Source of the DNA: Patescibacteria group bacterium
GTDB lineage: Bacteria > Patescibacteriota > Patescibacteriia > UBA1558 > GWA2-36-10
Assembly: GCA_041650755.1 (NCBI GenBank)
Contig: JBAZKN010000002.1
Span: 5,030-69,029, forward strand
Length of the DNA stretch: 64,000 nt
Direction: 5' to 3'
How positions within the stretch are numbered: the stretch's first letter is position 1; every line of letters starts with the position of its first letter. Shown here piece after piece: positions 1,383-59,388 of the stretch. The notes beneath the pieces were generated by a model. That model ran no database searches and was not told the DNA's origin. It saw nothing but the letters and a program-made list of their open reading frames with translations. Made by a program: the position numbers and the translations under genes.

Positions 1383-2126
1383 CTAGGAGCGCTGGAAGGC
1401 TTCAATGGGCGGATTACCGCCGAGCCCTGCACCCAAAGAGTAGATAGCCCGAGTAGCTCTATCAGCAATGGCCCGTTTGACTGTTCGTGGGTCTGTTTGG
1501 TCGGCATTGGCGATAAGGTCGCTATAGTCGACCGGCTGTCCGAAAGCAATCAGAATGTCTTTTCCGTTGTGGAAACGCTCCTCTCCCAAGGGGAAGACCT
1601 TTTCCATACCATCGATCCAGACCGGGACAATGGTAGCCCCAGTTTCATAGGCCACGTGGCCTATGCCGATACGCGGCGTGATTGGTTTGTTTGGACGCTC
1701 TCTGGTGCCGCCCGGAAATACAAAGAGTCGGCCATATCTGGCTAGCCGGCTCATGGCTCGCAAGGCACCAGGATCAATCCGGCTATGGGCGATGGGCTGG
1801 ATTTTCATGCACCAGCCCCAGATAGCCATCAATCTAGTCTTCATGTAGTTGGCCTTGTCTGCCGTGTGCCACGGTAGCAGCCACGGGCAGAAGAAGTCCC
1901 TTAGCCGCATAGCTGCTAGGGTCACCGGGAAGGAGTCTACTAACGTAAGGTGCCGACAGGCATAGATCACATTGCGGCCATGGGGTACGTGATGACGGCC
2001 AATGACCCGAGTGCGGTTGAATATGAAGAAGATGACGAAGGTCGCCGATCCAAATAGCGCTAGGATCGGCCAGCGCACCAGGTCAGCCAAGTACATCTTG
2101 GTGACCCTCCACCCAGAGATCTTCAT
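1383..2126 (-). CDS. Lysophospholipid (1-acyl-sn-glycerol-3-phosphate) acyltransferase-like protein (high-GC cassette A)
   Basis: The FPGGTRER acyltransferase motif and an N-terminal TM segment. Local GC about 56% against a backbone below 40%. Strong SD GAAAGGAG 7 nt before the ATG at 2126 (MKISGWRV). GC-rich terminator hairpin downstream (1330-1360). Confidence 0.55.
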   Translation of the reverse strand: MKISGWRVTKMYLADLVRWPILALFGSATFVIFFIFNRTRVIGRHHVPHGRNVIYACRHLTLVDSFPVTLAAMRLRDFFCPWLLPWHTADKANYMKTRLMAIWGWCMKIQPIAHSRIDPGALRAMSRLARYGRLFVFPGGTRERPNKPITPRIGIGHVAYETGATIVPVWIDGMEKVFPLGEERFHNGKDILIAFGQPVDYSDLIANADQTDPRTVKRAIADRATRAIYSLGAGLGGNPPIEAFQRS

Positions 2127-3372: not shown

Positions 3373-3449
3373 TGGTGCCCCCAGTAGGATTCGAACCTAC
3401 GACCGTTTGCTTAAGAGGCAACTGCTCTACCAACTGAGCTATAGGGGCA
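3373..3449 (-). tRNA. tRNA-Lys (anticodon CTT)
   Basis: Reverse complement TGCCCCTATAGCTCAGTTGGTAGAGCAGTTGCCTCTTAAGCAAACGGTCGTAGGTTCGAATCCTACTGGGGGCACCA. Anticodon loop CTCTTAA. Confidence 0.85.
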
Positions 3450-5669: not shown

Positions 5670-6194
5670 TTATTTATTAGTAGCCAGCTGTCTGTTTTTG
5701 ATGGTAGTCATGATTTTTACTGGGGCAAACAGTAGTCCGGTGTATAAGATATTACTAAGCAAGGTATTAAAGAAAAATGGTATAGCCAAAGTAAAACAAA
5801 GCATTAAGCCAGTCAGACTATGAGCATACCAGTGGCTAAATTGCCAGACAGCTAGATTGGTGATCAGAAAGAAAGTTAGAGCTGAAAGCAGCGTGGCAGA
5901 GCCGACATTTATCCAGTGGCCATGCTTTTTTAAGTAAAGTCCAAATAATAAGTTGAGAGCCAGACTGCCATAGATCGTTAGCATCAGCTGCCAAGCATAG
6001 AGGCCGAGCGCCAGATCGGATAATATGAGCGCCAAAAATGGCAGGATCCAATATTTCCGCTGGCTGGCATAAGCGCCGGCAAATAGCAGCAGGCTAGCCA
6101 GTGGAGAAAAATTTGGCAGATGCCAGATCAGCCTGGCCAGCAGCGCCAAAACACTTAAGATTATGAAGAGGTAGAGATTATCTTTTTTCATCAA
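5670..6194 (-). CDS. Small polytopic membrane protein (possible ECF-type S component)
   Basis: 174 aa with 5-6 TM helices. Adjacent to DUF4430 and CobO genes. Function inferred from context only. Confidence 0.45.
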   Translation of the reverse strand: MMKKDNLYLFIILSVLALLARLIWHLPNFSPLASLLLFAGAYASQRKYWILPFLALILSDLALGLYAWQLMLTIYGSLALNLLFGLYLKKHGHWINVGSATLLSALTFFLITNLAVWQFSHWYAHSLTGLMLCFTLAIPFFFNTLLSNILYTGLLFAPVKIMTTIKNRQLATNK

Positions 6195-6214
6195 ATTAAA
6201 ATTATTTATTAAAT

Positions 6215-6658
6215 TTAGAAATTAGCAGTTTCAAAACGCCATTCAATCTGGTCGCCCACTTTTGGCATGTATTGGCTGGCGCCCACTTGGCCCAAAATGT
6301 CGTTGATATAATATTGCCAGTATTTATTATCCCGGCCGTTGATTTTGTCATTAATCTGAGTAATTAGTCTGCCCATAGTGCTATAATCTGCATAGTTAAA
6401 AGTCCAAGCCTGTTTAGCCGCGACACTTTCCGTGATAGTAAAAAGGTTAGTGCTCAATTGGTCGGAGTAAGGATAAGCTAAGCTGATTTTTTTATCATCA
6501 CCGAAATTAAATATTATGGATATTTGCCCTTGCTCTTGGCCGGTAAGCTGCCCTATGGTTTCATTTTGATTTTTAATTGTTCGTGGCACTTGCCAGAAGA
6601 TCAGGGCTACTATTAATAACAGTGCCAGAAAAATAATAAGCTTAAGATTTTTTCGCAT
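6215..6658 (-). CDS. DUF4430-like secreted/anchored protein
   Basis: N-terminal signal/TM segment. C-terminal KYWQYYINDILGQVGASQYMPKVGDQIEWRFE resembles the DUF4430 consensus. Confidence 0.5.
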   Translation of the reverse strand: MRKNLKLIIFLALLLIVALIFWQVPRTIKNQNETIGQLTGQEQGQISIIFNFGDDKKISLAYPYSDQLSTNLFTITESVAAKQAWTFNYADYSTMGRLITQINDKINGRDNKYWQYYINDILGQVGASQYMPKVGDQIEWRFETANF

Positions 6659-6693
6659 ATATTTTATTTTGACAATTAGATGAATTAAAAATA

Positions 6694-7239
6694 TTAGTAG
6701 TCAATACCCGGTCTGGCAATCAAGCCCTGGCTGATGTAGTGTTTTTTGGCATTCATTTCGGTCACCAAATCCGCCAGATCCACGATTTCTTGGGGGCAAT
6801 AGCGCCCTGTCAAAATCAGCTCCAAGTTTTTTGGTTTTTGCTTGATCAAGATAAGGATATCGTCGCAATTTAGCAGGCCAGTTTTTACCGTGGTATTTAT
6901 TTCATCCAGTATCAGTAAATCAAAATTTTTTTTGAACCATAGTTTTGCCTGTTTGATGGCCGCAGCTGCTCCTTTGATGTCGCCAACCTGATTTTTGAAA
7001 CGGAAGCCCTTATTTTTTGACAGGCGCGGTAGACCGAAAGCGCAATAATCTATGTTTAGGTGCTTTATCTTGTCCAGGATTTTTCTTTCACTATAATAAT
7101 CGCCGCCTTTATCAAAATATATGATGCCCACCTTTAGTCCTTGTCCTAAGGCGCGGATAGCCAATCCTAAAGCAGCTGTGGTTTTACCTTTGCCGTGGCC
7201 AGTATAGACATGGATTTTTCCTAATTTATTATTTGACAT
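6694..7239 (-). CDS. cobO: Cob(I)alamin adenosyltransferase (CobA/CobO/BtuR family)
   Basis: P-loop VYTGHGKGKTTAALGLAIRALGQG is typical of BtuR/CobO. Start taken at MSNNK (7239). The 17 upstream codons in the ORF track are GC-rich sequence belonging to the adjacent island. Confidence 0.8.
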   Translation of the reverse strand: MSNNKLGKIHVYTGHGKGKTTAALGLAIRALGQGLKVGIIYFDKGGDYYSERKILDKIKHLNIDYCAFGLPRLSKNKGFRFKNQVGDIKGAAAAIKQAKLWFKKNFDLLILDEINTTVKTGLLNCDDILILIKQKPKNLELILTGRYCPQEIVDLADLVTEMNAKKHYISQGLIARPGIDY

Positions 7240-7304
7240 AAAGTCAGCATTTGTGTTTAAATTTTGAGGTCCCCCGGCTGTTCTTTTCATCAGGGAGGGC
7301 AGCC

Positions 7305-7475
7305 ATGCATTGGTGGCAGACTCGGCCTTTTTGGGTCACATTCTGTGTGGCCATCGGCGCGGTCATGATCTGGCGTATCCAGCATCACGTCTTTGACGTC
7401 ATCGGCGGTTTGTTTATCGCCCTTGGCATAACCATTGCCCTAATCAAGGACAAGGAAGGGAGAAGATGGAGATGA
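7305..7475 (+). CDS. Small membrane protein (56 aa), high-GC cassette C gene 1
   Basis: SD AGGGAGGG 5 nt before the ATG at 7305. Two hydrophobic segments. GC about 60%. Overlaps the next ORF by 10 nt (ATGGAGATGA). Confidence 0.5.
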   Translation: MHWWQTRPFWVTFCVAIGAVMIWRIQHHVFDVIGGLFIALGITIALIKDKEGRRWR

Positions 7476-7834
7476 ACGAAGGCGGCGCGTATCGCTACTT
7501 TTGGCCACTAATGGTCACACTGACGGGCGCGATCATTGTCCTATTCTCGGTTGGCGAGTCGAACCTCGTCTGTTTCATCGGCGCGCTGGTGGCTATCTCG
7601 GGCCTGATCTTCTTTCTGGCCAGGTCTCGCCTGTCCGCCACCCGGACCGTGATTCCAATCAACTGGTTTGCACTAGCGACAATGCTGGCGCTCTATCTCT
7701 GGACCCACGGTGGCCTGGAGGTTTCAACCGGCGATTGGCTGGTCAGCCTCTTGTTGGCTTTGGTGGGTACAGCTGTGCTCTGCTTTTTGCTATTGCTGAC
7801 CGGTTTTTGGATCGCGATCAGCCGTCGTCTATGA
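7466..7834 (+). CDS. Membrane protein (122 aa, 4 TM), cassette C gene 2
   Basis: SD AAGGAAGGGAG upstream. GC3-rich codons. Four hydrophobic helices. Confidence 0.55.
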   Translation: MEMNEGGAYRYFWPLMVTLTGAIIVLFSVGESNLVCFIGALVAISGLIFFLARSRLSATRTVIPINWFALATMLALYLWTHGGLEVSTGDWLVSLLLALVGTAVLCFLLLLTGFWIAISRRL

Positions 7835-7857
7835 TCCGAGTAGACGGAGGTGTGGAT

Positions 7858-7992
7858 ATGCTACAGGAGTTTTTGAAGCAATTGACCCAGTTGCGGTCAG
7901 TCTACATCGTGATGGCCGCGACAATCCTGCTCTTGTTCGCAATCTGGGCAGGGTGTGATTATCTGCCTCGCATTAGGGCGCGGCGACGCTAG
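7858..7992 (+). CDS. Small single-TM protein (44 aa), cassette C gene 3
   Basis: SD GGAGG 7 nt before the ATG at 7858 (MLQEFLKQLTQLRSVYIVMAATILLLFAIW...). Confidence 0.45.
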   Translation: MLQEFLKQLTQLRSVYIVMAATILLLFAIWAGCDYLPRIRARRR

Positions 7993-8039
7993 CCCCGCCC
8001 ATCCATCCCGAAGGGCAGACATGGTTCCGTGTACCTGAC

Positions 8040-8072
8040 CCGTCGAGCCGAGCTCGACGGTTTTTTATTTTT
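8040..8072 (+). terminator. Intrinsic terminator ending cassette C
   Basis: ccgtcgagc cga gctcgacgg followed by ttttttattttt. Confidence 0.8.
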
Positions 8073-8108
8073 AATCAAGACACCTTTTTAAATTTAGTCA
8101 TGATTAAT

Positions 8109-8717
8109 TTATATTAAAAATTTTCTGGTTAGATTATCAATATTTTTATTTTTTAAATATCTATCAATATTTTTTATAGCTTTAGCATGAAAATTATCTC
8201 TATAATATTTTGGCGTCAGCTGAATTTTTGGTTTTAAATAAGAGAGTATTGACTTGGTCCAAGCTCGTATGGGGAATGGTCTACCGTCGTGTAATAGATG
8301 ATATTCTCTTTCTATTTTTTTGCTGGCTGCTAAAAAGTTTTTATAACTTTCAGTAAACGATGATAAGTCGGCAGCTCGTAATATTTTTTGCTCAGTGGTT
8401 TTTAGGGGGTAGCCAGCTTTGGTCGCCATAATTGTTTGTTGGACTTGCTTAACAGCCCCAGTTGGGTATTTTAAAGTTTTTAATTCTCGAGCGGTAATTT
8501 TGCCAGCTAGTTCTTCTTTGTTATTTTTAACTTTATCATAGCCAGCATCATGAAATAGGGCGGCTATTTCTACTATCTCCCGATTGACTGGCACCTTGTA
8601 TTTTTTGCAGCGGTGGATAAATTTTAAAGCTACTCGCCTGACCTTGAGAGCATGAGCAAAATTGTGATAGGGAAGTTTGCCATAATGTTTTCTGGCAATA
8701 GTTTCAATTTTAGTCAT
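8109..8717 (-). CDS. HD-domain phosphohydrolase
   Basis: HNFAHALKV ... LFHDAGY, the H..HD metal-binding motif. Confidence 0.7.
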   Translation of the reverse strand: MTKIETIARKHYGKLPYHNFAHALKVRRVALKFIHRCKKYKVPVNREIVEIAALFHDAGYDKVKNNKEELAGKITARELKTLKYPTGAVKQVQQTIMATKAGYPLKTTEQKILRAADLSSFTESYKNFLAASKKIEREYHLLHDGRPFPIRAWTKSILSYLKPKIQLTPKYYRDNFHAKAIKNIDRYLKNKNIDNLTRKFLI

Positions 8718-8767
8718 TAGTTTTTATTTTATTTAAACTTGTCAAATAAATGCAGGTTTTGGCATTA

Positions 8768-8796
8768 TTGACATTTTTGTGCCATCAGTATAAAGT
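8768..8796 (+). promoter_or_regulatory. sigma70-like promoter (TTGACA ... TATAAA/TAAAGT) in AT-rich DNA, just before the high-GC cassette D
   Basis: ttgaca tttttgtgccatcag tataaagt. The GC-rich ORF starts 80 bp downstream. Confidence 0.4.
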
Positions 8797-8877
8797 AATA
8801 CGTCGTATAGTCAGGAAACTTTGCCAGTGGCTACAAGTGTTCGTTCTGGCCATGTACACACGAGACAAGGAGGCACC

Positions 8878-9210
8878 ATGAAGAAGAAGTCTGCTTTGCT
8901 TGCCATGACCACGGATCACCCCGAATGGGGCAAGTTCATGGCCCGCCTGCATGGTCCAAGGGGGTGCAATGCTCGTCAGAAGAAGGGCGTGGGGACCATC
9001 TACACCTGTGGGCATGAGTCTGATCGTCCTCGCATCAGGGCAATTCTCCAGGAGATGGGGGATGTCGATATCCCTCATACGATGGGGTGCTTCACGAAGC
9101 GGGGCCTCATGTGCGACTGCGCGGTCGCCCGCAGCGGCATCGCGCCCGCGCCGAAGCGGGTGCTGCCAGAGCAGCGTTCGTGGTGGGAGATCATGATGTC
9201 GCGACCGTAG
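8878..9210 (+). CDS. Cys/His-rich small protein (110 aa), cassette D gene 1
   Basis: Perfect SD caAGGAGGcacc before the ATG at 8878. Strong GC3 periodicity. Motifs GCNAR..., CGHESD, HTMGC, LMCDC suggest metal binding. Terminator-like hairpin downstream. Confidence 0.6.
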   Translation: MKKKSALLAMTTDHPEWGKFMARLHGPRGCNARQKKGVGTIYTCGHESDRPRIRAILQEMGDVDIPHTMGCFTKRGLMCDCAVARSGIAPAPKRVLPEQRSWWEIMMSRP

Positions 9211-9527
9211 GCTTGCCTTTAGCCGTCCACTGGGACCCTTCGAGGGTTCTGTGGGCGGTGTTTTTTTATTTTTCAATTATTTTTTTCTTGCCACCTTTTT
9301 ACCCTTCAACTCCCCCTCGACTTGGTTCGACTACGCTCACCACAAGTCGCTCGGGGTCAGACAACACGGTTTTTTAACGTGGCTAGTCGCTGCCAAATTT
9401 TAAGTTTTTCTAAGGGCGGGGTCGTTTGATTTATTTTTTAATCAAATTTTCTAAGTATAATTATTATAGAAAACATCCTGAGAGGGGGCGGGGATGCGTC
9501 GGGTGCATCCCCGAGAAGACTGGTGAT

Positions 9528-9713
9528 TCAGTACTTGCGATAAGGGTGCTCAGGCCCAGGGCCGCCGTGCTTGATCGGCTCGCCGTTCATTGGCCAGCGG
9601 CATCGTGGGCACTTGCGGAATGGAGGAGGATTGTTCACATCCTCGTGGCTGGTGTCGGTGTATAGACATCCAACGTTAGAGCACGCCCAAGTGTAATTTG
9701 GCGGAGGGAACAT
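9528..9713 (-). CDS. Zinc-ribbon-like mini-protein (61 aa), cassette D gene 2, convergent with gene 1
   Basis: SD aAAGGAGaaagacc before the ATG. CxxxxC ... CPRC spacing. An 8-bp perfect hairpin GGGGATGC/GCATCCCC lies just past the stop. Confidence 0.55.
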   Translation of the reverse strand: MFPPPNYTWACSNVGCLYTDTSHEDVNNPPPFRKCPRCRWPMNGEPIKHGGPGPEHPYRKY

Positions 9714-9865
9714 GGTCTTTCTCCTTTGGGGGATGTGGTTCTTTGGCCTCTTCTCAAGATGTTTTAAAGAGCGAGATTATGTAATTAATTTTATTTATTT
9801 TGTAATATAAATGGGAAATGTATTTCACTACACTAAACCCCTACCTTTTTGGCAGGGGTTTATAA

Positions 9866-12814
9866 TTATTTCATATCACATGCCCCTTTGAATCCACACT
9901 GCTTTGAACATTCCGTGCAACCGCCCATTTTGACCATAATGCCTTGCTTGCAGTTGGGGCAGATTTTACCGACCTCTGTGCCATAGCGATCATCTAGCTC
10001 TTCTTGCAGTACTTCTTTGGCAATTTCCAAGTGCTTTAAGGGGTTTTGGATTTCCGGCATTTCTACCGTATCTGGCGTGGGGGCAATGGCCACCTTAAGA
10101 GTTTTCTGCTCGGTTTCTTTTTTGCCGTTGTAAGCCAGATTTTTCTTTTCGGTTTCTTTATCTAGAGACAATACCTGTTCTTGCCGGCTGGCATCACGAT
10201 AAATAGTCACACCTTTACAACCTAGCTCGTAAGCTTGTTCATAGAGAACAGTAGTTTGTTCGACGCTGAAGTCAGCTGGAGCATTAGCCGTTTTGCTGAT
10301 AGAAGAGTCTGTCCAGCGTTGGACAGCTGCCTGCACCTTGATGTGATCGAGAGGAGACAGGTCCATGGCTGATACAAAGAAATCAGGCAGGTGACCATTG
10401 TGTTTGTAGAGATCAGCTAGCGGTATATAGACTTCGTGAAAACCAAGTCTGGATTGGCGGTAAAATTTGAAAGCATAATATGGCTCGATGCCGGTAGACG
10501 TCCCCAACATTGATCCGACTGTGCCGGTTGGCGCTTGCGTAGTCAGCGTGACATTGCGCAGGCCCTGCTCGCGGATCATGCCTCTCACATCTTCGGGCAA
10601 AGTTTTGACAAATCCGGTTTCTAAGAATTTTTCTGATTCAAACTTCGGGAATGAGCCTTTTTCTTTGGCCAGCCGAGATGATTCACGGTACATCTCGATT
10701 GTAATAGTCTGGAAAAGGCGGTCAATAAGTGGGGCTGCTTCACTGGAGCCATATTTGAGGCGCAGTTTTATTAATAATTCGCCCAAGCCCAAAGTGCCGC
10801 CACCGATGCGGCGCTCATTTTTTTGATTCAGCTCATTTTCTTTGAAGTGATAGGGCGTAAGGTCAATGACATTATCCAAAAATCTGGTCAAAACTCTGGC
10901 AGATTTTTTCAGGCCCTCCCAATCAAGCTCATACAATGGCCCTAGTTCGTCTTCACCCACCTGTCTGGCAAAAGAAGCCAAGTAAAGATGTCCTAAGTTG
11001 CAGACGCCCCAGGGCGGTAAGCCTTGCTCGCCGCAGGGATTGGTGGACACTAGCTTGTTGTAGTAGCTGGAATTGCTCAGTTTGTTGTAGCGCTCCATAA
11101 ATACTACGCCCGGTTCAGCACTGGCATGGGCCGAAGCAATGATTTTGTTCCATAGATCCCGCGCCTTGATGGTCTTGTATATTTTTACCGGATAGCCGGC
11201 GGCTTTCCAGGCATGCAGGTCGCCATCCCAGATATTGTCATAGATATCTTTATAGGCCGGGTTTTCATAGTCGGGGAACTCCAGATTCCAATATTCGTCA
11301 TTTTTGACGGCCTTCATAAAGGCATCAGATACCATGACGGAAATATTAGCATTTTCTATTTGGCCGGCTTTGGTTTTGGAGCTGATAAATTCTAAAATAT
11401 CCGGATGCCAGTCCCATTGCATCAGCATCAGGGCTCCTCGGCGCGAACCGCCTTGTTCTATCAGCCCGGTAGCATAAGAAAATAATCCCCCCCAAGAAAC
11501 AGAGCCAGAAGATTTGCCGTGCACGCCTTTGACGTAGGCATATCTGGGGCGCAAGGCAGATAGCGACATGCCCACGCCGCCACCGCGAGAAAAAACTTCG
11601 GTCATATGATAGAGCGTGTCAGCAATGATGGCTTTGCGGGAGTCGCGCGGTCCGGGCAAGACATAGCAATTGAATAGTGTCAGGTTGGAGGTGTAGTTGC
11701 CGTGGGTGTCGACGTTGGCGCCGGTCATGATGCGGCCGCCTGGCTGGATATGCTTGTCGTGCAATTCTTCAAAAAATATTTCAAAATATTTTTCTTTATT
11801 TTCCGGGCTAGTTTCCACTGAAGCCACAGCCTTGGCAATCCGGCGGTGAGCATCCTCTATGGATTCTCGCGGCTTGTCGCATTTATATAGGTCTTGCTCA
11901 AATTCAAAATTATTGGCCGGATCAGCAAAAGCGCCAGTCAGCATATGCAGGATAGTTTTGTCATCGGGCAAAATGTGCTTGATGATGCCCAAGTCTTTTT
12001 TGGGATATTTGCGGTCTTCTTTGGAGATGACAATTACCAGATCACCTAGCTCTATATCCTCCCTTTTATCTTTGATAGAGTAGCGATCAAGAAAAATGAT
12101 CCGACCCAGCTCATCAAAGCCAACAGAGTTATTTAGAATATGCTTAGCCTGCTTGCTGAGATTGATGCCTTTGGCCTCCAGAGCCTTTACTTCCGGCGAA
12201 GTGACTTCCTTACCCAGTTCGAGGCGGATTTTTTTGCGCTGTTCGCGGTAGAGGATAAAGGCTTTGGCGGTTTTGGCCCAATTTGACTGGATCAAGATGA
12301 TTTCTATGATATCTTGGATTTGTTCGACGTTTGGTATGGTGTGGCCGTCATACTTATGCTCTAGTATGGAGATGGTAATATCCGCCAGTTTTTTGGCTTC
12401 CAGCTCATCAAACTCCTGGGTAGCATTGCCGGCCTTAAGAATCGCCATAAAGACCTTGTTTTTATCAAAGTCAACAATGGTGCCGTCCCGTTTGCGTATT
12501 TTAGTGATATTAGAAAAAATTTTTTGCTGGGCGTCAGCCTTAGCATTTCTAGTTTTAAAGTAAGCCTTGGCTACTTGGGGCAGATTGTTTTCCAATAATA
12601 CTATATTTACAGCACTGCGGATGTCGTCGCTGGTAATCAATTCTTCGTCTGAATAGATATTTTCGATATATTTGACCACTTGTTGGGCGAATTTATCAGT
12701 TAAAGGGTTGTCTTGCAGGCCGGCACTCAAAAGGGCGCCTTTTAGAGAAGCGGCGATTTTGTCTTGGTCAAAATCTTCGGTGTTACCGGAGCGTTTTTTC
12801 ACTTGGCGAGCCAT
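9866..12814 (-). CDS. nrdJ: Class II (adenosylcobalamin-dependent) ribonucleotide reductase with N-terminal ATP-cone and C-terminal Zn ribbon
   Basis: ATP-cone (VKKRSGNTEDFDQDKIAASL), the catalytic NPCGEQ motif and a C-terminal CPNCKQG...CTECSKQC. Start taken at MARQVKK (12814). The 28 extra N-terminal residues of the ORF-track model (ATG at 12898) would overlap the upstream palindromes. Confidence 0.85.
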   Translation of the reverse strand: MARQVKKRSGNTEDFDQDKIAASLKGALLSAGLQDNPLTDKFAQQVVKYIENIYSDEELITSDDIRSAVNIVLLENNLPQVAKAYFKTRNAKADAQQKIFSNITKIRKRDGTIVDFDKNKVFMAILKAGNATQEFDELEAKKLADITISILEHKYDGHTIPNVEQIQDIIEIILIQSNWAKTAKAFILYREQRKKIRLELGKEVTSPEVKALEAKGINLSKQAKHILNNSVGFDELGRIIFLDRYSIKDKREDIELGDLVIVISKEDRKYPKKDLGIIKHILPDDKTILHMLTGAFADPANNFEFEQDLYKCDKPRESIEDAHRRIAKAVASVETSPENKEKYFEIFFEELHDKHIQPGGRIMTGANVDTHGNYTSNLTLFNCYVLPGPRDSRKAIIADTLYHMTEVFSRGGGVGMSLSALRPRYAYVKGVHGKSSGSVSWGGLFSYATGLIEQGGSRRGALMLMQWDWHPDILEFISSKTKAGQIENANISVMVSDAFMKAVKNDEYWNLEFPDYENPAYKDIYDNIWDGDLHAWKAAGYPVKIYKTIKARDLWNKIIASAHASAEPGVVFMERYNKLSNSSYYNKLVSTNPCGEQGLPPWGVCNLGHLYLASFARQVGEDELGPLYELDWEGLKKSARVLTRFLDNVIDLTPYHFKENELNQKNERRIGGGTLGLGELLIKLRLKYGSSEAAPLIDRLFQTITIEMYRESSRLAKEKGSFPKFESEKFLETGFVKTLPEDVRGMIREQGLRNVTLTTQAPTGTVGSMLGTSTGIEPYYAFKFYRQSRLGFHEVYIPLADLYKHNGHLPDFFVSAMDLSPLDHIKVQAAVQRWTDSSISKTANAPADFSVEQTTVLYEQAYELGCKGVTIYRDASRQEQVLSLDKETEKKNLAYNGKKETEQKTLKVAIAPTPDTVEMPEIQNPLKHLEIAKEVLQEELDDRYGTEVGKICPNCKQGIMVKMGGCTECSKQCGFKGACDMK

Positions 12815-12894
12815 AAATTTGCTTTTATTTAAGGATTTTTTATTAGTTTTATTGGCCGATAAAAAAATGGCCAAAGGACATTTTACGCTGTAAA

Positions 12895-12910
12895 ACACAA
12901 CATATTGTGT
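12895..12910. promoter_or_regulatory. NrdR-box-like 16-bp palindrome upstream of nrdJ
   Basis: acacaacatattgtgt, immediately preceded by a second palindrome ttttacgctgtaaaa (12880-12894). It resembles the NrdR operator consensus. No nrdR gene lies in the window. Confidence 0.3.
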
Positions 12911-16052: not shown

Positions 16053-16095
16053 ATAGGCAATTATACCATATTTTTTTGTGTTTAGGGGGCGTGTA

Positions 16096-16124
16096 TTGAC
16101 AATTTTATTATATTTTGCTATAAT
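16096..16124 (+). promoter_or_regulatory. Perfect-consensus sigma70 promoter TTGACA-N17-TATAAT preceding cassette E
   Basis: ttgaca attttattatattttgc tataat. A roughly 120-nt leader follows, with a hairpin (cagtc...ggcctttgtgaaacaggcc...gactg), then the SD AAAGGAGG. Confidence 0.55.
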
Positions 16125-16248
16125 ATTTTGATACAGTCAAAAGTTGGCCTTTGTGAAACAGGCCCTAGACTGTTACTTTGAACCTTCAATTATTCTCCCA
16201 AGTACTATGCTATAACAAAACGCCTAACGGCAGGCAAAAGGAGGCCTC

Positions 16249-16968
16249 ATGGACAAAGCGTTGTTGGAACAGGTGGCCGGGCGACTAGACGAGAAAGTCG
16301 CCGTGGCCCAACTACTGGTGGTGCACATGCTCGCTTCTGACCCTCCTTCATCCGAGGTTGATATGCTGGCCATTCACGGACTCTCGGCCGGCATGTACCA
16401 GAGCGGGAATCTCCTGGAGTGCGCTGCCGAGCTCTGGCGTTCAGGGCTTGCCAGCCACATGGCAGTGGTCGGCGGTGACGGCAGTCCGACGGGCCAGTCG
16501 GCTCCGGGAGCATCCTGGGTCGGGTCCAGCTTTCTGATCGAAGAGCTGGCCAAGCGCGAAGTCCCCCAAGACCAGATCATCGTGATGGATCCCATCACCC
16601 ACACCAAGGAGGAGGCTTACGCCATCGTCCGGGCGGCCATGAAGCACGGGTACCGGAGCGTGATGAGCGTAACGGTGCCTTACCATGGCCCCAGAGTGCT
16701 CTCCTGCCTGGTCGCGGTGATGAAAGAGTTGGGCTACTGGATCGAGTGGCACATGATGGTGCCGCCCAAGGTCAACTGGACCCTGGAGATGGTCGCTTCC
16801 CAGGGCAAGGGCACGACCAACTCCCTGTTCGCGGCCATGGACGATGCCGCCAAGGTCCAGAAGTACGTGGACAACAGTTTCGGTGCTTCCTACCCGGAGG
16901 TGATCTACTACCTGCTCAATCGTGCTCGGATCGTCGAGCACCAGCAGTGGGATTTCCCTGGGGCGTAA
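16249..16968 (+). CDS. DUF218 (YdcF/ElyC/SanA)-like protein, high-GC cassette E
   Basis: SD aAAGGAGGcctc ATG. GC about 62%. Motifs VVGGDGS, THTKEEAYAI and TVPYHGPRV align with the DUF218 GG, NTxENA and TSxxHMxRA boxes. Confidence 0.5.
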   Translation: MDKALLEQVAGRLDEKVAVAQLLVVHMLASDPPSSEVDMLAIHGLSAGMYQSGNLLECAAELWRSGLASHMAVVGGDGSPTGQSAPGASWVGSSFLIEELAKREVPQDQIIVMDPITHTKEEAYAIVRAAMKHGYRSVMSVTVPYHGPRVLSCLVAVMKELGYWIEWHMMVPPKVNWTLEMVASQGKGTTNSLFAAMDDAAKVQKYVDNSFGASYPEVIYYLLNRARIVEHQQWDFPGA

Positions 16969-17070: not shown

Positions 17071-17136
17071 AATTTACCCTGTTAAATAACTCCGCTTAGC
17101 GGAGTTGCCGCGCGGCGGCATTTAACAGGGTAAATT
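17071..17136 (+). repeat. Structured 66-bp element, copy 1
   Basis: 17-bp perfect outer inverted repeat aatttaccctGTTAAAT / ATTTAACagggtaaatt enclosing hairpins aactccgc-ttag-gcggagtt and gccgc-gcg-gcggc. Ends 21 nt before the DUF2207 ATG. Confidence 0.7.
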
Positions 17137-17157
17137 TGTAAGATTAATAAAGTATTT

Positions 17158-18975: not shown

Positions 18976-19131
18976 TTAGTGACTCACGCTCATGGCATCG
19001 TTGATGCCATAGCCCAGCAGACATATTCCCGATATGATGATTATCACTAGCACTAGGACGATTCCGATCTTGCTAGAGCGGGACTCACTCCGCCAAAACG
19101 CGTTGAGTAGGATTTCTGATTTTTTAGGCAT
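18976..19131 (-). CDS. 51-aa hydrophobic peptide (type I toxin-like) with strong SD; moderately GC-rich micro-cassette F
   Basis: ggaAAGGAGGgcc ATG, then MPKKSEILLNAFWRSESRSSKIGIVLVLVIIIISGICLLGYGINDAMSVSH. Not in the ORF track (below 60 aa). Followed by the terminator above. Confidence 0.4.
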   Translation of the reverse strand: MPKKSEILLNAFWRSESRSSKIGIVLVLVIIIISGICLLGYGINDAMSVSH

Positions 19132-22248: not shown

Positions 22249-22253
22249 TTTAT

Positions 22254-23516
22254 TTAACAGGGCAAATTAATTATTTTTTTAGGTGCCAAGCGTATGCTTT
22301 TTTCCAAGCTCGCCATATCTACTCTGACTGGCGACCCTTTGCGTAAATAGTCAACTATATCAGGCAGCTTAGTCATCAGATATTCTAGATCTTTTTTGGT
22401 GGTGTATTTACCCAAAGTAAAGCGTAGTGAGCCGTGGGCGGCTTCATAAGGCCTGCCCAAAGCGCGGATGACGTGGGATGGCTCTAGGGTAGTAGAGGTA
22501 CAGGCCGAGCCAGTAGATGCCTGAACGCCAACTTCATCTAAGTACAATAACAAGGCTTCACCTTCTATGTCCAGTATAGAAATATTTATATTGTTGGGCA
22601 GCCTTTTTTCTGCGTGGCCGTTGAGTATAGTTTTGGGGATTTTTTTGAGGATAGATTTTATCAGCCAATCTCGTAAAATAATTAAGCGTCGATTTTCTTT
22701 TTCTCTATTTTTTTGAGCTAATTTTAAAGCTGCGGCCAGGCCGATGATGCCAGGTACATTTTCTGTTCCTGAACGCAGATTTTTTTCTTGACCGCCACCA
22801 TCTATCAGCGGCGCTAAAGGTGTGCCGCGTCGCGCATAGAGCAAACCAACTCCTTTGGGACCATAGATTTTACTGCCGTTAATGGTCAGCAAATCAACGT
22901 GCATTTTTTGGACATCAAGCGGCAGGGCTCCGGCTGCTTGGCAAGCATCAGTGTGAAAATAAATCTTATTGAGCCCGCTTTTTTGTCTAGCCATATTGAC
23001 CCTAGTAAGATTAGCGCCAATTTTTTGGATGGGTTGGAGCGTGCCAATCTCATTGTTGGCAGTCATGATGCTCACCAGCATTGTATTTGGCCTAATAGCT
23101 CGATTGAGCAGCGGCTCCATGATAATGCCGTCATCGTCAACTGGTACAATGGATACGGTGAAGCCCTGTTTGGCCAGATGTTCGGCTGTATGCAGGACAG
23201 CATGATGCTCGATGGCTGAAATTATCAGGTGCGGTTTATTTTTTTCTGTCAAAAAATTATAAGTCAAGCCCTTGATAGCCAGAGCAATGCTTTCAGTACC
23301 GCCGCTGGTAAAGATTATTTCTTCAGCTTGGCAATTTAGAATTTGAGCAAGATCAGTCCGAGCATTTTCAACAGCTTGTTTAGCCATTAAACCAAGAGAG
23401 TAGAGGCTGGATGGATTGCCAAATTTATCCGACCAATATGGCGCCATAGCCCGAAGCACGACCGGGTCGACGGGAGTGGTGGCCGCGTAGTCCAAATAAA
23501 TATTTTTTCTAGGCAT
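22254..23516 (-). CDS. Cysteine desulfurase (NifS/IscS class V aminotransferase)
   Basis: HTDACQAAG, PLP-lysine region INGSKIYGPKG. 420 aa. Confidence 0.85.
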   Translation of the reverse strand: MPRKNIYLDYAATTPVDPVVLRAMAPYWSDKFGNPSSLYSLGLMAKQAVENARTDLAQILNCQAEEIIFTSGGTESIALAIKGLTYNFLTEKNKPHLIISAIEHHAVLHTAEHLAKQGFTVSIVPVDDDGIIMEPLLNRAIRPNTMLVSIMTANNEIGTLQPIQKIGANLTRVNMARQKSGLNKIYFHTDACQAAGALPLDVQKMHVDLLTINGSKIYGPKGVGLLYARRGTPLAPLIDGGGQEKNLRSGTENVPGIIGLAAALKLAQKNREKENRRLIILRDWLIKSILKKIPKTILNGHAEKRLPNNINISILDIEGEALLLYLDEVGVQASTGSACTSTTLEPSHVIRALGRPYEAAHGSLRFTLGKYTTKKDLEYLMTKLPDIVDYLRKGSPVRVDMASLEKSIRLAPKKIINLPC

Positions 23517-23746: not shown

Positions 23747-23824
23747 GTTAATATTTAGCTTTTATAGTATTAATAATAATGAAAATAGATAAAACAGTCA
23801 ATTTTTGAGTAAAATATATGAATA

Positions 23825-23853
23825 TTGACAATTTTTTCTATATATGATATAAT
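23825..23853 (+). promoter_or_regulatory. Perfect-consensus sigma70 promoter TTGACA-N17-TATAAT preceding cassette G
   Basis: ttgaca attttttctatatatga tataat. A 70-nt leader with the hairpin tggcc-tttt-ggcca follows, then the SD AAGGGAG. Confidence 0.55.
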
Positions 23854-23924
23854 ATAATGTTAAGTCGTACATAGACAACTATTCTGTAGCTTTTCTTGGC
23901 CTTTTGGCCAGAAGGGAGACCATA

Positions 23925-24959
23925 ATGAGCGGGACAGTTCGTCTAGTCAAGAAAATCGTGACTCATGTCAAGCCCCATCTGGATGAGCTGGTGGCCATTT
24001 GGCTGCTCGTCCGGTGGGGGGAGAAACACTTCCCCGGCATCAACACTGTGCCAGTAGAGGTCTGGCGCAAGGGGTTGGAGTCCGCCGACGGCCGCTCCTT
24101 TGAGGAGCATGAGGACGAAGGCACGATGTTCATCGGGATTGGCGGCGGCCAGTTCGATGAGCACCCGACCAACGGCACTGACGATCTGTCTGGTGAGTGC
24201 GCGGCCACTCTGGTCGCCAAGCGTCTGGGCATCCAAGACGACCCGGCTCTCGAAAGGATTCTGGACTTCGTTCGTCGGATTGACACCAAAGGTGGCGCCA
24301 ATCCTTGGGACATCTCGGCTGTCGTTAAGGCGGCCAACGAAGTCGGCAAAGGTCTGCCGGAGCTGCTCACCTGGGTGTTCTTGGCGCTTGATGCCAAGTA
24401 TGAACAGCAGGTCAAGTTCCTCGAGGCAGAGGCCGATGCCAACATCGCCCAATGGGATACGGTCGGCTCTGTGCGGGTAGCTACCGCAGAATCTGACAAC
24501 CAGCAGGTCTACAAGGTGCTTTTCACTAGGGGTGCGGCGGTGGCGATTGTTCGCCGGCGTCAGGATGGCCGAGTGGCCATCTTCACGCAGAAGCGTGACA
24601 ACATCAGGCTCACTGACGCTGTCAGGATCATCCGCCGCTTGGAGCAGAAGGCTCGCGGCGATGTCAGGACTACCAACTGGAAGGAGCTGGCAGCGCCTGG
24701 TTCCATCGACGCTGTGGCGCGCTGGTACTATCTTAAGGAGGGTGAAATGCTGCTGAACGGCAGCGATACCCACCCCGATACGCCGGCTACCGGTCTGTCC
24801 CTTTCCACCATCCGTCAGGCGGTCATCTTGGCCCTTTCTGGCGAGATGATCTGCTCGCAGGCCAATGTCTGCGACGGGAAGTCCTGCAAGTGGTATCAGC
24901 TCGGCCTGAGCCGGTGCCAGACAATTCGCTACAGAATGTCGAGTGGCCAATCGCAGTAG
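23925..24959 (+). CDS. MYG1/UPF0160-like metal-dependent hydrolase, high-GC cassette G
   Basis: N-terminal KKIVTHVKPHLDELVAIWLL fits the MYG1 T-H-x-x-x-H-x-D-E signature. GC about 60%. SD present. Terminator downstream. Confidence 0.45.
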   Translation: MSGTVRLVKKIVTHVKPHLDELVAIWLLVRWGEKHFPGINTVPVEVWRKGLESADGRSFEEHEDEGTMFIGIGGGQFDEHPTNGTDDLSGECAATLVAKRLGIQDDPALERILDFVRRIDTKGGANPWDISAVVKAANEVGKGLPELLTWVFLALDAKYEQQVKFLEAEADANIAQWDTVGSVRVATAESDNQQVYKVLFTRGAAVAIVRRRQDGRVAIFTQKRDNIRLTDAVRIIRRLEQKARGDVRTTNWKELAAPGSIDAVARWYYLKEGEMLLNGSDTHPDTPATGLSLSTIRQAVILALSGEMICSQANVCDGKSCKWYQLGLSRCQTIRYRMSSGQSQ

Positions 24960-33970: not shown

Positions 33971-34048
33971 GGTGGCAGTAGCTCAGTTGGTTAGAGCATC
34001 GGGTTGTGGTCCCGGCGGTCGTGGGTTCGAGACCCATCTGCCACCCCA
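33971..34048 (+). tRNA. tRNA-His (anticodon GTG) with encoded G-1 and CCA
   Basis: G-GTGGCAGTAGCTCAGTTGGTTAGAGCATCGGGTTGTGGTCCCGGCGGTCGTGGGTTCGAGACCCATCTGCCAC-C-CCA. Confidence 0.85.
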
Positions 34049-34086
34049 TCGAAGATCCTGAGCGAACGTAGTGAGTCGAAGGATCA
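34043..34086 (+). repeat. 44-bp direct repeat, left copy (overlaps the last 6 nt of tRNA-His); attL-like
   Basis: accccatcgaagatcctgagcgaacgtagtgagtcgaaggatca, identical to 35761-35804. Each copy is followed by a similar hairpin plus T-run. Confidence 0.85.
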
Positions 34087-34350
34087 AAAAACACCCAATT
34101 TTCTTTGAGTGTTTTTTGTTCGTTATAATTTGACTAAATATATAATAATTGCTATAGTATCTTGTTGTTTTTCATATATTTCGTAGTCTGCTTTTTGTTT
34201 ATTTATATGAGTAAAAAGCAGGCTAAGAAAACGCTTAGTCTTTGTTCCGTTAAATAATTTTTTGTGTACGAAGGGGGGTGAACCAGACCGTTGTTCTGTC
34301 GGCAATCTCGTGTGCTAGGGTTCTGGATTCATTCAAGGAGGTATGGGAGG

Positions 34351-35613
34351 ATGTCGACCATGCTGCAATCCCAGGTCATCGAAAGGCTTCTGAAGTACGC
34401 GCGGGTCAACACCCGTTCGCTTCAGGCCATGCCGGGCGAGGAGCTCCCTCACCCAAGCAGTCCGGAGCAGGTGGTCTTGATCGACCTGTTGCTCTCCGAG
34501 CTGTCCGACATGGGGGTGCCGTCCAACTGGACCAGGAAGCTCGAAGACGCTTCGTTCCTGATCGAGATCCCCGCGACCGAGGGCCACGAGAACGCCCCGC
34601 ACGTCGTTCTGGCTGCGCACGTGGACACCTACTTCGGCTGTCCCGGCGGGGCCAACCCGATCATCCACGAGTACCAGGGCGGCGACATCGCGCTCCCGAA
34701 CGACAACGTGGTCATCCCGGCCTCGGACCTTGCCGGTCTCGAGGGCAAGGGGATCATCACCGCTGACGGCACCACGCTGCTCGGTGGCGACGACAAGTGC
34801 GGAGTCGCGGCCATCATGACCTTCATCGAGAGCATGCTGGCTCACAATCTGCCGCACGGTCCGCTGACCATCTGGATCTGTACCGACGAGGAGGTCGGCG
34901 AGGTCGGCGTGAAGTTCCTGCCTTCGGGCACGGCGGAGAAGTGGGACTTCTTCTGGACCGTGGACGGGGAGCGTCTCGAAGTCGTGGACATTGGCTGTTT
35001 CTACGGCTCCTCGGTCGACGTCGAGTTCATCGGCAACGATTCCCATCCGGGTGTCTCCGGCCACTCGCTCAAGCCCGCCCACTACGCCGCCTGTCGCTTC
35101 GTGGATCAGCTCGGCCTGGCGCCGACGCCCTGGCGGACCAGCGGCGAGGAGTCGTTCATCTACGTGCCCTCTCTGCCCGCCTGCACGGCCGGCAAGTCGA
35201 CGATCAAGGTCTTCCCGCGTACCTTCCGCCAGGAAGAGATCCCTGAGATGCGGGAGACGATCCGGCTCGTGGCCGAGGAGGCGGCTTCGCACTACGGCGT
35301 CCAGGCCGTGGTCAGTGAGGCCAAGATCCTCTACGTCTCCACCGAGGTCGCGATCGACCAGAACCGCCACCTGTTGCAGCCGGGTCTGGACGCGATCCGG
35401 AAGTTCTGGGTCGAGCCCAAGCTGCATCGCGTGCGCGCTGGCACCGACGGCGCCATGCTGAACATGACGTACCCGAAGATCCCGTCGCCGAACATGGGAG
35501 CCGGGGCCCGCAACTTGCACGGCGTTCGCGAGTTCGTCGTGCGGGAAGAGCTCCAGCTCGTCCCGGAGATCATCTCCGAGATGATCGGAATCTACGCGAC
35601 CATGTCGCGCTGA
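34351..35613 (+). CDS. M20-family peptidase (peptidase T/PepT-like tripeptidase), high-GC cassette H cargo
   Basis: HVDT, GGDDKCGVAAIM, TDEEVGE, GTDGA and NLHGVREF motifs of M20B. GC about 62%. SD AAGGAGG 9 nt before the ATG at 34351. Confidence 0.75.
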   Translation: MSTMLQSQVIERLLKYARVNTRSLQAMPGEELPHPSSPEQVVLIDLLLSELSDMGVPSNWTRKLEDASFLIEIPATEGHENAPHVVLAAHVDTYFGCPGGANPIIHEYQGGDIALPNDNVVIPASDLAGLEGKGIITADGTTLLGGDDKCGVAAIMTFIESMLAHNLPHGPLTIWICTDEEVGEVGVKFLPSGTAEKWDFFWTVDGERLEVVDIGCFYGSSVDVEFIGNDSHPGVSGHSLKPAHYAACRFVDQLGLAPTPWRTSGEESFIYVPSLPACTAGKSTIKVFPRTFRQEEIPEMRETIRLVAEEAASHYGVQAVVSEAKILYVSTEVAIDQNRHLLQPGLDAIRKFWVEPKLHRVRAGTDGAMLNMTYPKIPSPNMGAGARNLHGVREFVVREELQLVPEIISEMIGIYATMSR

Positions 35614-35760
35614 TCCGCCATCGTGAGAGGTTCGCAACCCAAACTGCCGTCTCAACAATCCTTGCAGGTGAGAGATGGCGTTTTCATTTATTTAAAATTG
35701 TAGATAGGGTATATGATAAGTATTTGAAATTAGTATAGTCCCGATACGTTTTACGACGCG

Positions 35761-35804
35761 ACCCCATCGAAGATCCTGAGCGAACGTAGTGAGTCGAAGG
35801 ATCA
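35761..35804 (+). repeat. 44-bp direct repeat, right copy; attR-like
   Basis: Perfect match to 34043-34086. Followed by tcaccc..gggtgg ttttttg terminator-like hairpin. Confidence 0.85.
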
Positions 35805-35868
35805 CAAAATCACCCTGAGCGTAGTCGAATGGGTGGTTTTTTGATATAATGGAGAAAATAAATTCACC

Positions 35869-37836: not shown

Positions 37837-38949
37837 TTATTTATTGTGTCCTTTACCATTGCCAGATGATTGTTTTGGCATAGCTTGTTTTAAGTTGCCA
37901 TTGAACTTAGCCATTTTTTGTTGTAGTCTATTTTTTAGAATATGGATTGGGTTGCGATCATTTTCACGATTTTTTTCACACCAATCATCGCACTTGCATT
38001 CACATTGGCATCTTTGATTGTTGTTTCTACCCAACGTGGTTACTGAAATAATACTAGAGTTTGGGGAGACATTGCCAGCCGCATCATAGGCTTTGACAAA
38101 GTAAGAGTAGGTGGTAGATGCAGTTAGACGGATGTCGTTATAATGGGGATTTTTAACTTGAGCAATTTGGATTCCATCTCTAAATACTTTATAGCCAACC
38201 ACAGCTAGATCATCGGTTGAAGTTGACCATTTTAGATTGACGTGCTGGAAAGAGACCACATGGGCGACTAAATTAGTTGGTGCATTAGGTATAGTCGTGT
38301 CAGTGGGGTTTGCCAAGGTTATAGCCGAGACAGTATTGGAGGCAGTTGATATGTTGCCAGCCGCATCATAGGTTTTTACAAAAAAGCTATAGGTAGTAGA
38401 AGCAGTTAGACCAGTGTTATTGAAAGTAGTATCGGTTGATGTGGCAATTTGTATATTATTTCTAAATATTTTATAGCCAGCTACTCCAATATTATCAGTA
38501 GCAGCGGTCCAGCTCAAATTTATTTGGGAAGAAGACACTGTGTTGGCGACTAGGTTAGTTGGCGCACTGGGCACAGTCAAATCAACGGGCATAGCCAGAG
38601 TCGTAGTTGATACTGGATTAGAAAAATCCGATTTATTACCAGCCACATCATAGGCCTTAATAGCATAGGTATAAGTAGTAGAGGCTGTCAGTCCCAAGTC
38701 GTTGAATGTGGTGGTAGCTACATTGGCGACTCCAAGACCATTTCTAAATATACTATAACCAGCTACTCCAATATTATCAGTAGCAGCGGTCCAGTTCAAA
38801 TTTATTTGGGAGTTTGAAACTGCAGTGGCCGCTAAATTAGTTGGTATAGATGGAGGAGTGGTGTCATCCACAGCTAGAGCGGACTTGATAAGTGTCAAAG
38901 AGGAGTAGGCAGCTACGAGTACGCCCAAGATTAAAAGTATTTTTTTCAT
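37837..38949 (-). CDS. Secreted protein with four fibronectin type III-like repeats and a C-terminal Cys/charged tail
   Basis: Four repeats of about 90 aa (PTNLxAxxVSxxQINLxWTAATDNIGVAGYxIFRNG). Signal peptide. Tail QRCQCECKCDDWCEKNREND. Confidence 0.7.
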   Translation of the reverse strand: MKKILLILGVLVAAYSSLTLIKSALAVDDTTPPSIPTNLAATAVSNSQINLNWTAATDNIGVAGYSIFRNGLGVANVATTTFNDLGLTASTTYTYAIKAYDVAGNKSDFSNPVSTTTLAMPVDLTVPSAPTNLVANTVSSSQINLSWTAATDNIGVAGYKIFRNNIQIATSTDTTFNNTGLTASTTYSFFVKTYDAAGNISTASNTVSAITLANPTDTTIPNAPTNLVAHVVSFQHVNLKWSTSTDDLAVVGYKVFRDGIQIAQVKNPHYNDIRLTASTTYSYFVKAYDAAGNVSPNSSIISVTTLGRNNNQRCQCECKCDDWCEKNRENDRNPIHILKNRLQQKMAKFNGNLKQAMPKQSSGNGKGHNK

Positions 38950-59226: not shown

Positions 59227-59292
59227 AATTTACCTTGTTAAATAGTTCCGCAAGGCGGAACTGCCGCTTTGTGGCATTTAACAGAGTAAATT
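59227..59292 (+). repeat. Structured 66-bp element, copy 2
   Basis: aatttaccttGTTAAAT ag ttccgc-aag-gcggaa ct gccgc-ttt-gtggc ATTTAACagagtaaatt. Same architecture as copy 1, with compensatory changes in the inner stems. Confidence 0.7.
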
Positions 59293-59388
59293 TTATCATA
59301 AAACGACACAAAAAGAAAAACTCGCCGCGTGAGTCCACCTGATGGTGGCGCAGCGAGCTTGAGGGAGAGGGGGGGGTGGGCGGGGTGC

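Follow-up and report, generated by a model that had tools for sequence, protein, structure and literature searches.

A GC-rich cassette of small membrane protein genes in the nrdJ-cobO gap of a Patescibacteria genome

In a 64,000-nucleotide stretch of Patescibacteria group bacterium DNA (hereafter the window; GenBank assembly GCA_041650755.1, contig JBAZKN010000002.1, positions 5,030 to 69,029), a cassette of three open reading frames (ORFs) at 7240-8072 lies directly beside the divergent gene cobO. Our interpretation, to which we give a probability of roughly 0.6, is that this region is an acquired, self-contained accessory transcription unit in the hypervariable interval that separates nrdJ from cobO in the Komeilibacteria-like genome of an uncultured, ultra-small bacterium (Parcubacteria, within the candidate phyla radiation, CPR). 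Its three real or probable genes encode small integral membrane proteins with two, four and one transmembrane (TM) segments. The cassette deviates in composition from its surroundings, and at the syntenic site its presence is patchy, since it was found in one relative (L030) and is absent from 17 others (L003-L019). Taken alone it is an unremarkable accessory islet whose membrane proteins are ORFans, a new case of the well-known acquired genomic islets.

Genes, composition and expression signals of the cassette

All three genes are on the forward strand. ORF1 (7305-7475) encodes 56 amino acids (aa) with two predicted TM segments and follows a Shine-Dalgarno (SD) sequence, GGGAGGG, at 7293-7299; ORF2, with four predicted TM segments, begins either at 7466 (7466-7834, 122 aa) or at 7472 (7472-7834, 120 aa) in the SD context AAGGAAGGGAG; and ORF3 (7858-7992; 44 aa, one predicted TM segment and a poly-Arg C-terminal tail) is preceded by GGAGGTG at 7846-7852. 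The stop codon of ORF1 and the start codon of ORF2 overlap, and the ATG at 7472, which has an SD spacing of 9 nt equal to that of the homologue in L030, overlaps the stop codon of ORF1 (7473-7475) by 4 nt, as ATGA. An earlier note had described three ORFs of 56, 122 and 44 aa with these TM numbers, strong SDs and overlapping or close spacing, and this description is upheld by the ORFs themselves, by their hydropathy (one clear TM peak each in ORF1 and ORF3, several in ORF2) and, for ORF2, by an AlphaFold2 model with four helices and a predicted local distance difference test score (pLDDT) of 64. The two TM segments of ORF1 and the topologies of all three proteins are predictions in which basic residues fall on the cytoplasmic loops and tails, in agreement with the positive-inside rule. 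Both termini of ORF1 are predicted to be cytoplasmic, and the protein carries a conserved His-His in its outer loop as well as a conserved Cys.

The cassette island (7261-8095) has a GC content of 0.545 against 0.431 for the window, as measured in a 200-nt sliding window. In the frames of ORF1, ORF2 and ORF3, GC at third codon positions (GC3) reaches 0.65, 0.71 and 0.71, respectively, with GC at second positions (GC2) of 0.40-0.46, whereas the comparison values outside the cassette range from 0.27 to 0.51 in GC3, with cobO at 0.47 and the neighbouring HD-domain gene at 0.27. All three frames show the three-base periodicity GC3 > GC1 > GC2, which an alternative 163-aa frame in the cassette does not have.

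Transcription would start from a sigma-70-type promoter whose -35 element overlaps the start codon of cobO. The putative -35 hexamer, TTGACA (7233-7238, forward strand), is read from the sequence inside the opposite-strand codons 1-2 of cobO (ATG-TCA-A start) and is kept in L030, where the same TTGACA overlaps the start codon of another gene, pterin-4a. The candidate extended -10 element, TGnTTAAAT (7254-7262, forward strand), comes 18 nt after the -35 in a block, TTGTGTTTAAAT, that is identical in the window and L030; it was not listed by the promoter scan because its position 2 is not A. The AT-rich 25 bp adjoining the cobO ATG hold this conserved predicted promoter, and the composition switches from AT to GC at a TCCCCC motif (7270-7275, forward strand), the predicted 5′ end of the mRNA. 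An (A)TCCCCC motif also precedes the first start codon by 15-35 nt in several small-gene cassettes of the nrdJ-cobO gap, namely in L030 (at about 2096), L018, L019, L006 and L004, and at the window gene p61 (9728-9733, reverse strand); as a motif enriched across the window it was rejected, with 19 occurrences observed against 26.5 expected.

The leader would then form a hairpin of 11-12 bp (7276-7304, forward strand), which holds the SD of ORF1 in its 3′ arm and ends 1 nt before the ATG. The U-rich strand UUCUUU pairs with GGGAGG through G-U and A-U pairs, and the RNAalifold consensus of the window and L030 has 11 pairs, none of them broken, of which one differs by a compensatory change between GC and AU and another by a change between GU and AU on one side only. 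This region upstream of ORF1 is conserved between the two genomes despite their different divergent neighbours (cobO versus pterin-4a). Translation of ORF1 may be gated by the hairpin that buries its SD, and translational coupling would tie the production of ORF2 to that of ORF1. Like the fourU and ROSE-type RNA thermometers and similar translational gates, the leader pairs a U-rich strand with an SD directly before a start codon, but unlike them it has no Rfam family match and is represented by two sequences only.

At the other end of the cassette, where the earlier note had placed a terminator, a 9-bp GC-rich stem with a 3-nt loop (8040-8060) is followed by a T-run (8061-8072); this intrinsic terminator (8040-8072, forward strand) folds at -18.1 kcal/mol (z = -3.39), and 0 of 200 shuffles fold as well. 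A consensus scan, which is a weak test, predicted no minus-strand promoter or terminator between 7240 and 8070. Because no minus-strand terminator is predicted inside the cassette, and the minus strand of 8040-8072 has no U-run, transcripts of the convergent HD gene could run on antisense through the cassette into cobO. Such read-through would transcribe the antisense strand, and GC-rich islands in AT-rich genomes, as this one is, are often RNA genes, so that one may think of a structured non-coding RNA, or of an opposite-strand 5′ leader of cobO, instead of protein genes. We find this very improbable in view of the three-base GC periodicity, the codon-level conservation described below and the correctly spaced SD before each ATG. 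In addition, only tRNAs reach the Rfam gathering score in the window, and at E <= 5 over 7150-9950 the matches (best E 0.034-4.3) are at chance level, to unrelated families outside the cassette body.

Distribution of the cassette and variability of the nrdJ-cobO gap

The protein homologue searches had an overall scope of about 15 billion proteins. No family in Pfam, PHROGs, PADLOC or NCBIfam was above threshold for ORF1, ORF2 or ORF3, and word-index searches of 5.8 billion clusters gave self-matches only. A HMMER pass over 1.84 billion representatives recovered one true relative, P0003 (117 aa, 38-39% identity to ORF2, E 2.7e-8), together with two eukaryote-like repeat proteins that were judged spurious. 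A two-sequence profile brought no additional relatives, the sequence search of the PDB was negative, AlphaFold2 modelling followed by Foldseek gave at best an E of 1.2 and a TM-score below 0.5, and no relatives were found in phage and plasmid DNA and protein, viral contigs or JGI metagenomes. The assignment of ORF1 to the PAP2 phosphatases (E 4e-4) was rejected, as the match reaches 20.6 bits where 27.2 would be needed and spans no more than the final third of the domain, and as the L030 homologue has a Ser in place of the Asp of HxxxD and weakly matches MerC but not PAP2. Also rejected was an in-frame upstream extension of ORF1, 'SSGR' (PSGH-like), which is kept with L030 only as DNA, in another frame.

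P0003 is found on a 2.8-kb contig of GCA_964591505.1, the assembly we call L030, and also on a Logan contig. By its flanking genes L030 is the closest relative of the window, with 62% identity in DUF4430 (at most 44% elsewhere) and 70-72% in cobO. The gene order is DUF4430, cobO, a GC-rich island with three tiny TM ORFs, the AT-rich pterin-4a and the GC-rich cassette island, which contains a 49-aa homologue of ORF1 (2124-2273, 47% identity), P0003 and a third ORF. The earlier note had reasoned that a conserved housekeeping operon in low-GC relatives would speak against its view of the cassette, and the single homologue turned out to be once more a GC-rich accessory island. The third ORF of L030 belongs to a longer single-TM family also present in L012-L014 (motif EDLEYV..DG..RP), and its similarity to ORF3 is confined to the TM segment (E 0.019). 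Since the match extends over this segment only, ORF3 is the weakest of the three gene calls, and it may be a truncated derivative of a longer gene.

Against L030, the proportion of nonsynonymous differences (pN) is lower than that of synonymous differences (pS) both in ORF1 (0.34 and 0.60) and in ORF2 (0.42 and 0.63), because of which we take these two to be real, fast-evolving genes under selection; the backbone genes have a pN of 0.17-0.21 and a saturated pS of 0.73-0.80. The reading frames, SDs, SD spacing and leader of ORF1 and ORF2 are kept as well. These observations bear on the possibility that the cassette is decaying foreign DNA whose ORFs are relics no longer expressed or selected. 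The proteins are indeed ORFans, their nonsynonymous divergence (dN) is high, the third gene is not shared and may be a shortened form, and the host genes have no SDs, with some Parcubacteria lacking the anti-SD altogether (PMC9297842). However, ORF1 and ORF2 have stayed intact in both lineages after a synonymous divergence (dS) above 1, with pN still below pS, the SDs, their spacing and the leader pairing were conserved, and the topologies read from the sequences fit the positive-inside rule, all of which makes a relic unlikely. An assembly chimera was rejected: a 236-kb metagenome contig from ENA and an independent contig from Logan both encode ORF2, ORF1 is also present in a third assembly, and the same junctions are seen in all three, therefore they are not an assembly artefact.

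The cobO gene (6694-7239, reverse strand; Pfam CobA_CobO_BtuR, 2.8e-52) has no SD, and exactly 65 bp lie between its ATG (7239) and that of ORF1 (7305), the distance given in the earlier note; the gene caller did not choose an extended, 198-aa cobO that reaches 7290. Scanning species-representative genomes with CobO gave 17 loci with 61-71% identity (L003-L019), in metagenome-assembled genomes (MAGs) of Candidatus Komeilibacteria, Parcubacteria or Patescibacteria or in otherwise-labelled MAGs with the same synteny. The genes for a cyclic nucleotide (cNMP)-binding protein and a PilT-like ATPase (T2SSE), DUF6580, DUF4430 and cobO are syntenic in all 17, the cassette is absent at the syntenic site in every one of them, and nrdJ, which encodes a class II ribonucleotide reductase, is upstream of cobO on the same strand wherever the contig of the relative reaches that far. 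Because the nrdJ-cobO distance varies from at most 21 bp (L015) over about 0.4 kb (L017), 1.8 kb (L014), 2.2 kb (L005) and 2.6 kb (window) to 6 kb (L013), we regard this gap as a hypervariable hot spot. In the relatives it is filled with different small, GC-elevated genes, mostly for membrane proteins and all pointing away from cobO.

This arrangement casts doubt on the claim that the insertion replaced the native promoter of cobO, because in the ancestral state cobO was probably co-transcribed with nrdJ, which it follows on the same strand in the relatives (almost directly in L015), rather than having a promoter of its own. The comparison of the region upstream of cobO in relatives without the insert, which the earlier note had proposed, thus showed the cassette to be absent and makes co-transcription with nrdJ the probable ancestral state.

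The position of the cassette near cobO in both carrier genomes, and the conserved His-His and Cys of ORF1, would also suit accessory subunits of the B12/cobalt salvage system of cobO-DUF4430-DUF6580, such as a small transporter of metal or corrinoid. We consider this quite unlikely, given that none of the 17 relatives with the same B12 cluster has the cassette, that another island and pterin-4a stand between the cassette and cobO in L030, and that unrelated small genes occupy the same gap in other genomes. The composition and SD usage of the cassette are also unlike those of the cluster, and no Pfam or NCBIfam match was above the cut-off, including those to cobalt/B12 transporters (CbiMN, CbtAB, BtuM and ECF S-components). 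The B12 cluster itself (5670-12898), with nrdJ for the B12-dependent class II reductase, cobO, DUF4430 and DUF6580, is conserved in Komeilibacteria-like genomes and is probably a module of corrinoid salvage and use for this reductase in a streamlined CPR genome.

From nrdJ, the gap in the window contains p61, p110, the HD gene and the three-gene cassette. The AT-rich HD gene (8109-8717, reverse strand; GC 0.34, Pfam HD 5.3e-7) is convergent with the cassette and had no tblastn match at this locus in L003-L019. A second GC-rich island (8794-9765) holds p110 (8878-9210, forward strand; 110 aa) and p61 (9528-9713, reverse strand; 61 aa, Zn-ribbon-like), both GC-rich and SD-led, and homologues of p61 occupy the corresponding gap in L009 and L013. 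Kinship of ORF1 and ORF2 with a 3-TM 'NPWTWAV' family at the same site in L004, L006, L007, L018 and L019 was rejected (hhalign probability 1.6-7%). The stacking of small units of one or a few genes with foreign composition in a variable site is reminiscent of integron gene cassettes; unlike those, the units here have their own predicted promoter and terminator, no attC-like site is seen at the cassette (its only 3′ palindrome is the terminator), and no intI or other recombinase was found in a search confined to the flanking 10 kb or so on each side.

Six relatives (L003, L004, L005, L008, L010 and L018) also have an AT-rich gene of about 95 aa some 0.2-1 kb upstream of cobO and on the same strand, with the sequence MD..KKKIKDFLNSPDTDLL...YDTPNADLAKWTLNYRLYDNM... 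and a C-terminal TM helix; it was not noticed in the nrdJ-cobO gap of the window, where no search was aimed at it. A second hot spot is found between DUF6580 and the PilT-like ATPase, where a GC-rich family of 170-aa proteins (GC3 about 0.7) occurs in L009 (4538-5242), L012 (3447-4081) and L013 (9630-10270).

Possible functions of the three proteins

The earlier note had taken the architecture of the cassette as typical of holin/antiholin-like, abortive-infection or membrane toxin-immunity modules, and these suggestions fared poorly: the family, phage, plasmid and viral searches reported above returned no match, neither an endolysin nor a recombinase is encoded in the flanking 10 kb or so on each side, and a minus-strand promoter was not predicted. 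Holins of the various classes and the CidA/LrgA proteins are small and have TM numbers in a range covering 1, 2 and 4, so that the sizes, TM counts and compact, coupled genes of the cassette would fit a lysis cassette or prophage remnant whose small TM proteins permeabilise the membrane. The cassette is unlike these systems, however, in having no sequence or profile similarity to them and no phage context. The best PHROGs match has an E of 0.021, which is not significant, and is to a family without assigned function; no Pfam holin or LrgA/CidA match was found at E <= 0.1, viral contigs and phage genomes yielded no relatives, and the flanks, over about 10 kb each way, contain no endolysin or other murein hydrolase, no LrgB/CidB partner and no integrase or further phage gene, the genes there being cobO, DUF4430, DUF6580, T2SSE, HD, the ribonucleotide reductase and the like. 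We therefore hold a lysis function to be improbable.

The mRNAs of type I toxins encode a short hydrophobic peptide and have a leader that occludes the SD. ORF3, a 44-aa protein with one TM segment and a basic tail, and the SD-hiding leader of the cassette recall such loci (Hok/Sok, TisB/IstR, Fst), as does the narrow distribution of this fast-evolving, lineage-restricted family, and one could envisage a toxin-immunity system of the membrane, a type I toxin-antitoxin-like module or an abortive-infection effector. On the other hand, three co-oriented genes that include a 122-aa protein with four TM segments are atypical for such loci, the SD that is hidden is that of ORF1 and not of the toxin-like ORF3, and a different gene takes the place of ORF3 in L030. 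PADLOC gave nothing for the three proteins or P0003 at E <= 0.1, and no antisense promoter or RNA is evident, the minus-strand promoter prediction being a weak test. A toxin module thus appears unlikely. In descending order of probability, we would place the alternatives to an acquired accessory unit as relic, toxin-immunity or type I-like module, B12/cobalt accessory, holin-like cassette and non-coding RNA.

As for what the proteins do, our tentative guess is a small hetero-oligomeric complex of the cytoplasmic membrane that serves as an accessory of the envelope or in niche adaptation, and we find a lytic or toxic module less likely than such a complex.

SD-led GC-rich islands and the SD-less backbone

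The window holds about 10 GC-rich islands in which each gene stands behind a strong AAGGAGG-type SD, whereas no SD core of at least 5 nt precedes the first start of any of the roughly 50 backbone ORFs. Likewise, about 25 GC-elevated small genes in the relatives (L003-L019 and L030) have AAGGAGG-type SDs, and cobO, DUF4430 and pterin-4a have none. Most islands have an AT-rich consensus promoter on their 5′ side. The contrast between an SD-less backbone and SD-led islands supports the view that the cassette came from a source that is rich in GC and uses SDs, and that it was then ameliorated in part. The GC-rich foreign insertion proposed in the earlier note thus holds in its alien composition, its alien SD usage and its absence from 17 relatives, though not as to a donor, which was not found; nor is the insertion, real as it is, unique, since it is one of about 10 such islands.

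We suggest that the common ancestor of the window and L030 lineages would have acquired the cassette from such a source, possibly a GC-richer CPR relative, and that the cassette would have been partially ameliorated thereafter. Horizontal gene transfer (HGT) is frequent in Patescibacteria, and most of it is between members of this group (PMC12455944). A CPR donor with a higher GC content is conceivable because the names of Komeilibacteria MAGs suggest a GC content of about 36-53%, if the first number in their NCBI taxonomy names is the GC percentage. The cassette resembles the ameliorating acquired islets of the Lawrence-Ochman model, and the HGT islands of Patescibacteria (PMC12455944), in its deviant GC and GC3, its patchy distribution at a break point of synteny and the graded GC3 series among the islands of the window. 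It differs from them in that its alien signature includes SD usage amid SD-less host genes, and in that the island has neither a recombinase nor a tRNA target or direct repeats at its flanks as traces of mobility or insertion, and no donor lineage or phylogenetic incongruence was found.

Several points weigh against this interpretation. No donor homologue was found outside the two CPR genomes among all the proteins searched, so that the case for a foreign origin is built on composition, SD usage and patchy distribution. Both lineages retain a high GC3 although the synonymous sites of the backbone are saturated, and this calls for a source very rich in GC, for a later exchange or for selection. 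ORF3 is not conserved in L030. The leader hairpin rests on two sequences, so that its conservation is suggestive only, and its single-sequence fold z-scores (-0.17 and -1.22) are not significant. Finally, a subgroup of Parcubacteria has no anti-SD motif in its 16S rRNA (PMC9297842), and if the ribosome of this host lacks it too, the SDs and the SD-masking hairpin may serve no function.

The other GC-rich islands of the window include those of an acyltransferase (1383-2126, reverse strand), a DUF218 gene (16249-16968, forward), a 51-aa TM gene (18976-19131, reverse), a 344-aa gene (23925-24959, forward), an M20 peptidase (34351-35613, forward), a 70-aa gene (56970-57182, reverse) and a gene at 59389-59859 (reverse), and these other GC-rich genes are missing at the syntenic positions in relatives. 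The M20 peptidase has homologues with 75-83% identity on three other low-GC contigs (L032-L034), each again forming a GC-rich island; its GC3 is 0.89 in the window and 0.69 in L032, against 0.25-0.32 for the backbone, and the lower value in L032 is as expected from a longer residence in an amelioration series. A shared mobile-cassette boundary was rejected for this island, which has only the coding sequence in common with L032-L034, the flanks being different. In the window, the M20 island (GC 0.62) is flanked by 52-nt direct repeats (34040-34091 and 35758-35809, 96% identical), the first of which starts in the last 9 nt of a tRNA-His (33972-34048), and no integrase lies between them.

Further repeats were observed in the window. 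A 67-nt palindromic repeat, AATTTACCCTGTTAAAT...ATTTAACAGGGTAAATTT, is found at the edges of two GC-rich islands (17071-17137 and 59227-59293, 81% identical), with a half-site at 22251-22269, and a similar palindrome in L030 (1667-1719) overlaps the 3′ end of pterin-4a and adjoins another island; it could be an element like the repetitive extragenic palindromes (REP-like) or a bidirectional terminator. Directly upstream of the islands of the DUF218 and 344-aa genes are 40-nt consensus promoters, TATTGACAATTTT...TATAATAT, which are 73% identical (16094-16133 and 23823-23862). The 3′ half of tRNA-Lys recurs as a 45-nt copy (2873-2917 versus 3373-3417, 89% identical) at a distance of 456 bp from the intact gene, with a tRNA-Arg in between; this copy may be the scar of an old integration. 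The 370-aa ORF at 37837-38949 (reverse strand) includes three tandem 282-nt repeats (38031-38844, 61-85% identical), and its product is a protein with three 94-aa repeat domains.

A broader idea, which we put forward as possible though doubtful, is that Komeilibacteria-like CPR genomes share, across the clade, a second class of genes to which the cassette belongs; these genes would be short, GC-rich and led by canonical SDs within a backbone that has none, and would mostly code for tiny membrane proteins. Its members would have an AT-rich consensus promoter and change in composition where transcription starts, and TCCCCC would often lead the first gene. Such a class could be a CPR-specific mobile gene pool, or could represent mRNAs on a separate, SD-dependent route where bulk translation is SD-independent, and if this is true ORF1 and ORF2 would be the founding members of a new membrane-protein family.

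The cassette is a clean example of how foreign genes are taken up and retained in streamlined CPR genomes at fixed hot spots between conserved operon genes, and it shows how sharply the acquired, SD-led genes are set off from a backbone without SDs. This genome of two classes, set apart by SD and GC, is to us a more interesting lead than the cassette itself. If the anti-SD of the host is lacking or hidden, the islands raise the question of how SD-led, GC-rich mRNAs get translated, and SD together with GC3 would also be a simple rule to flag acquired genes in Parcubacteria MAGs.

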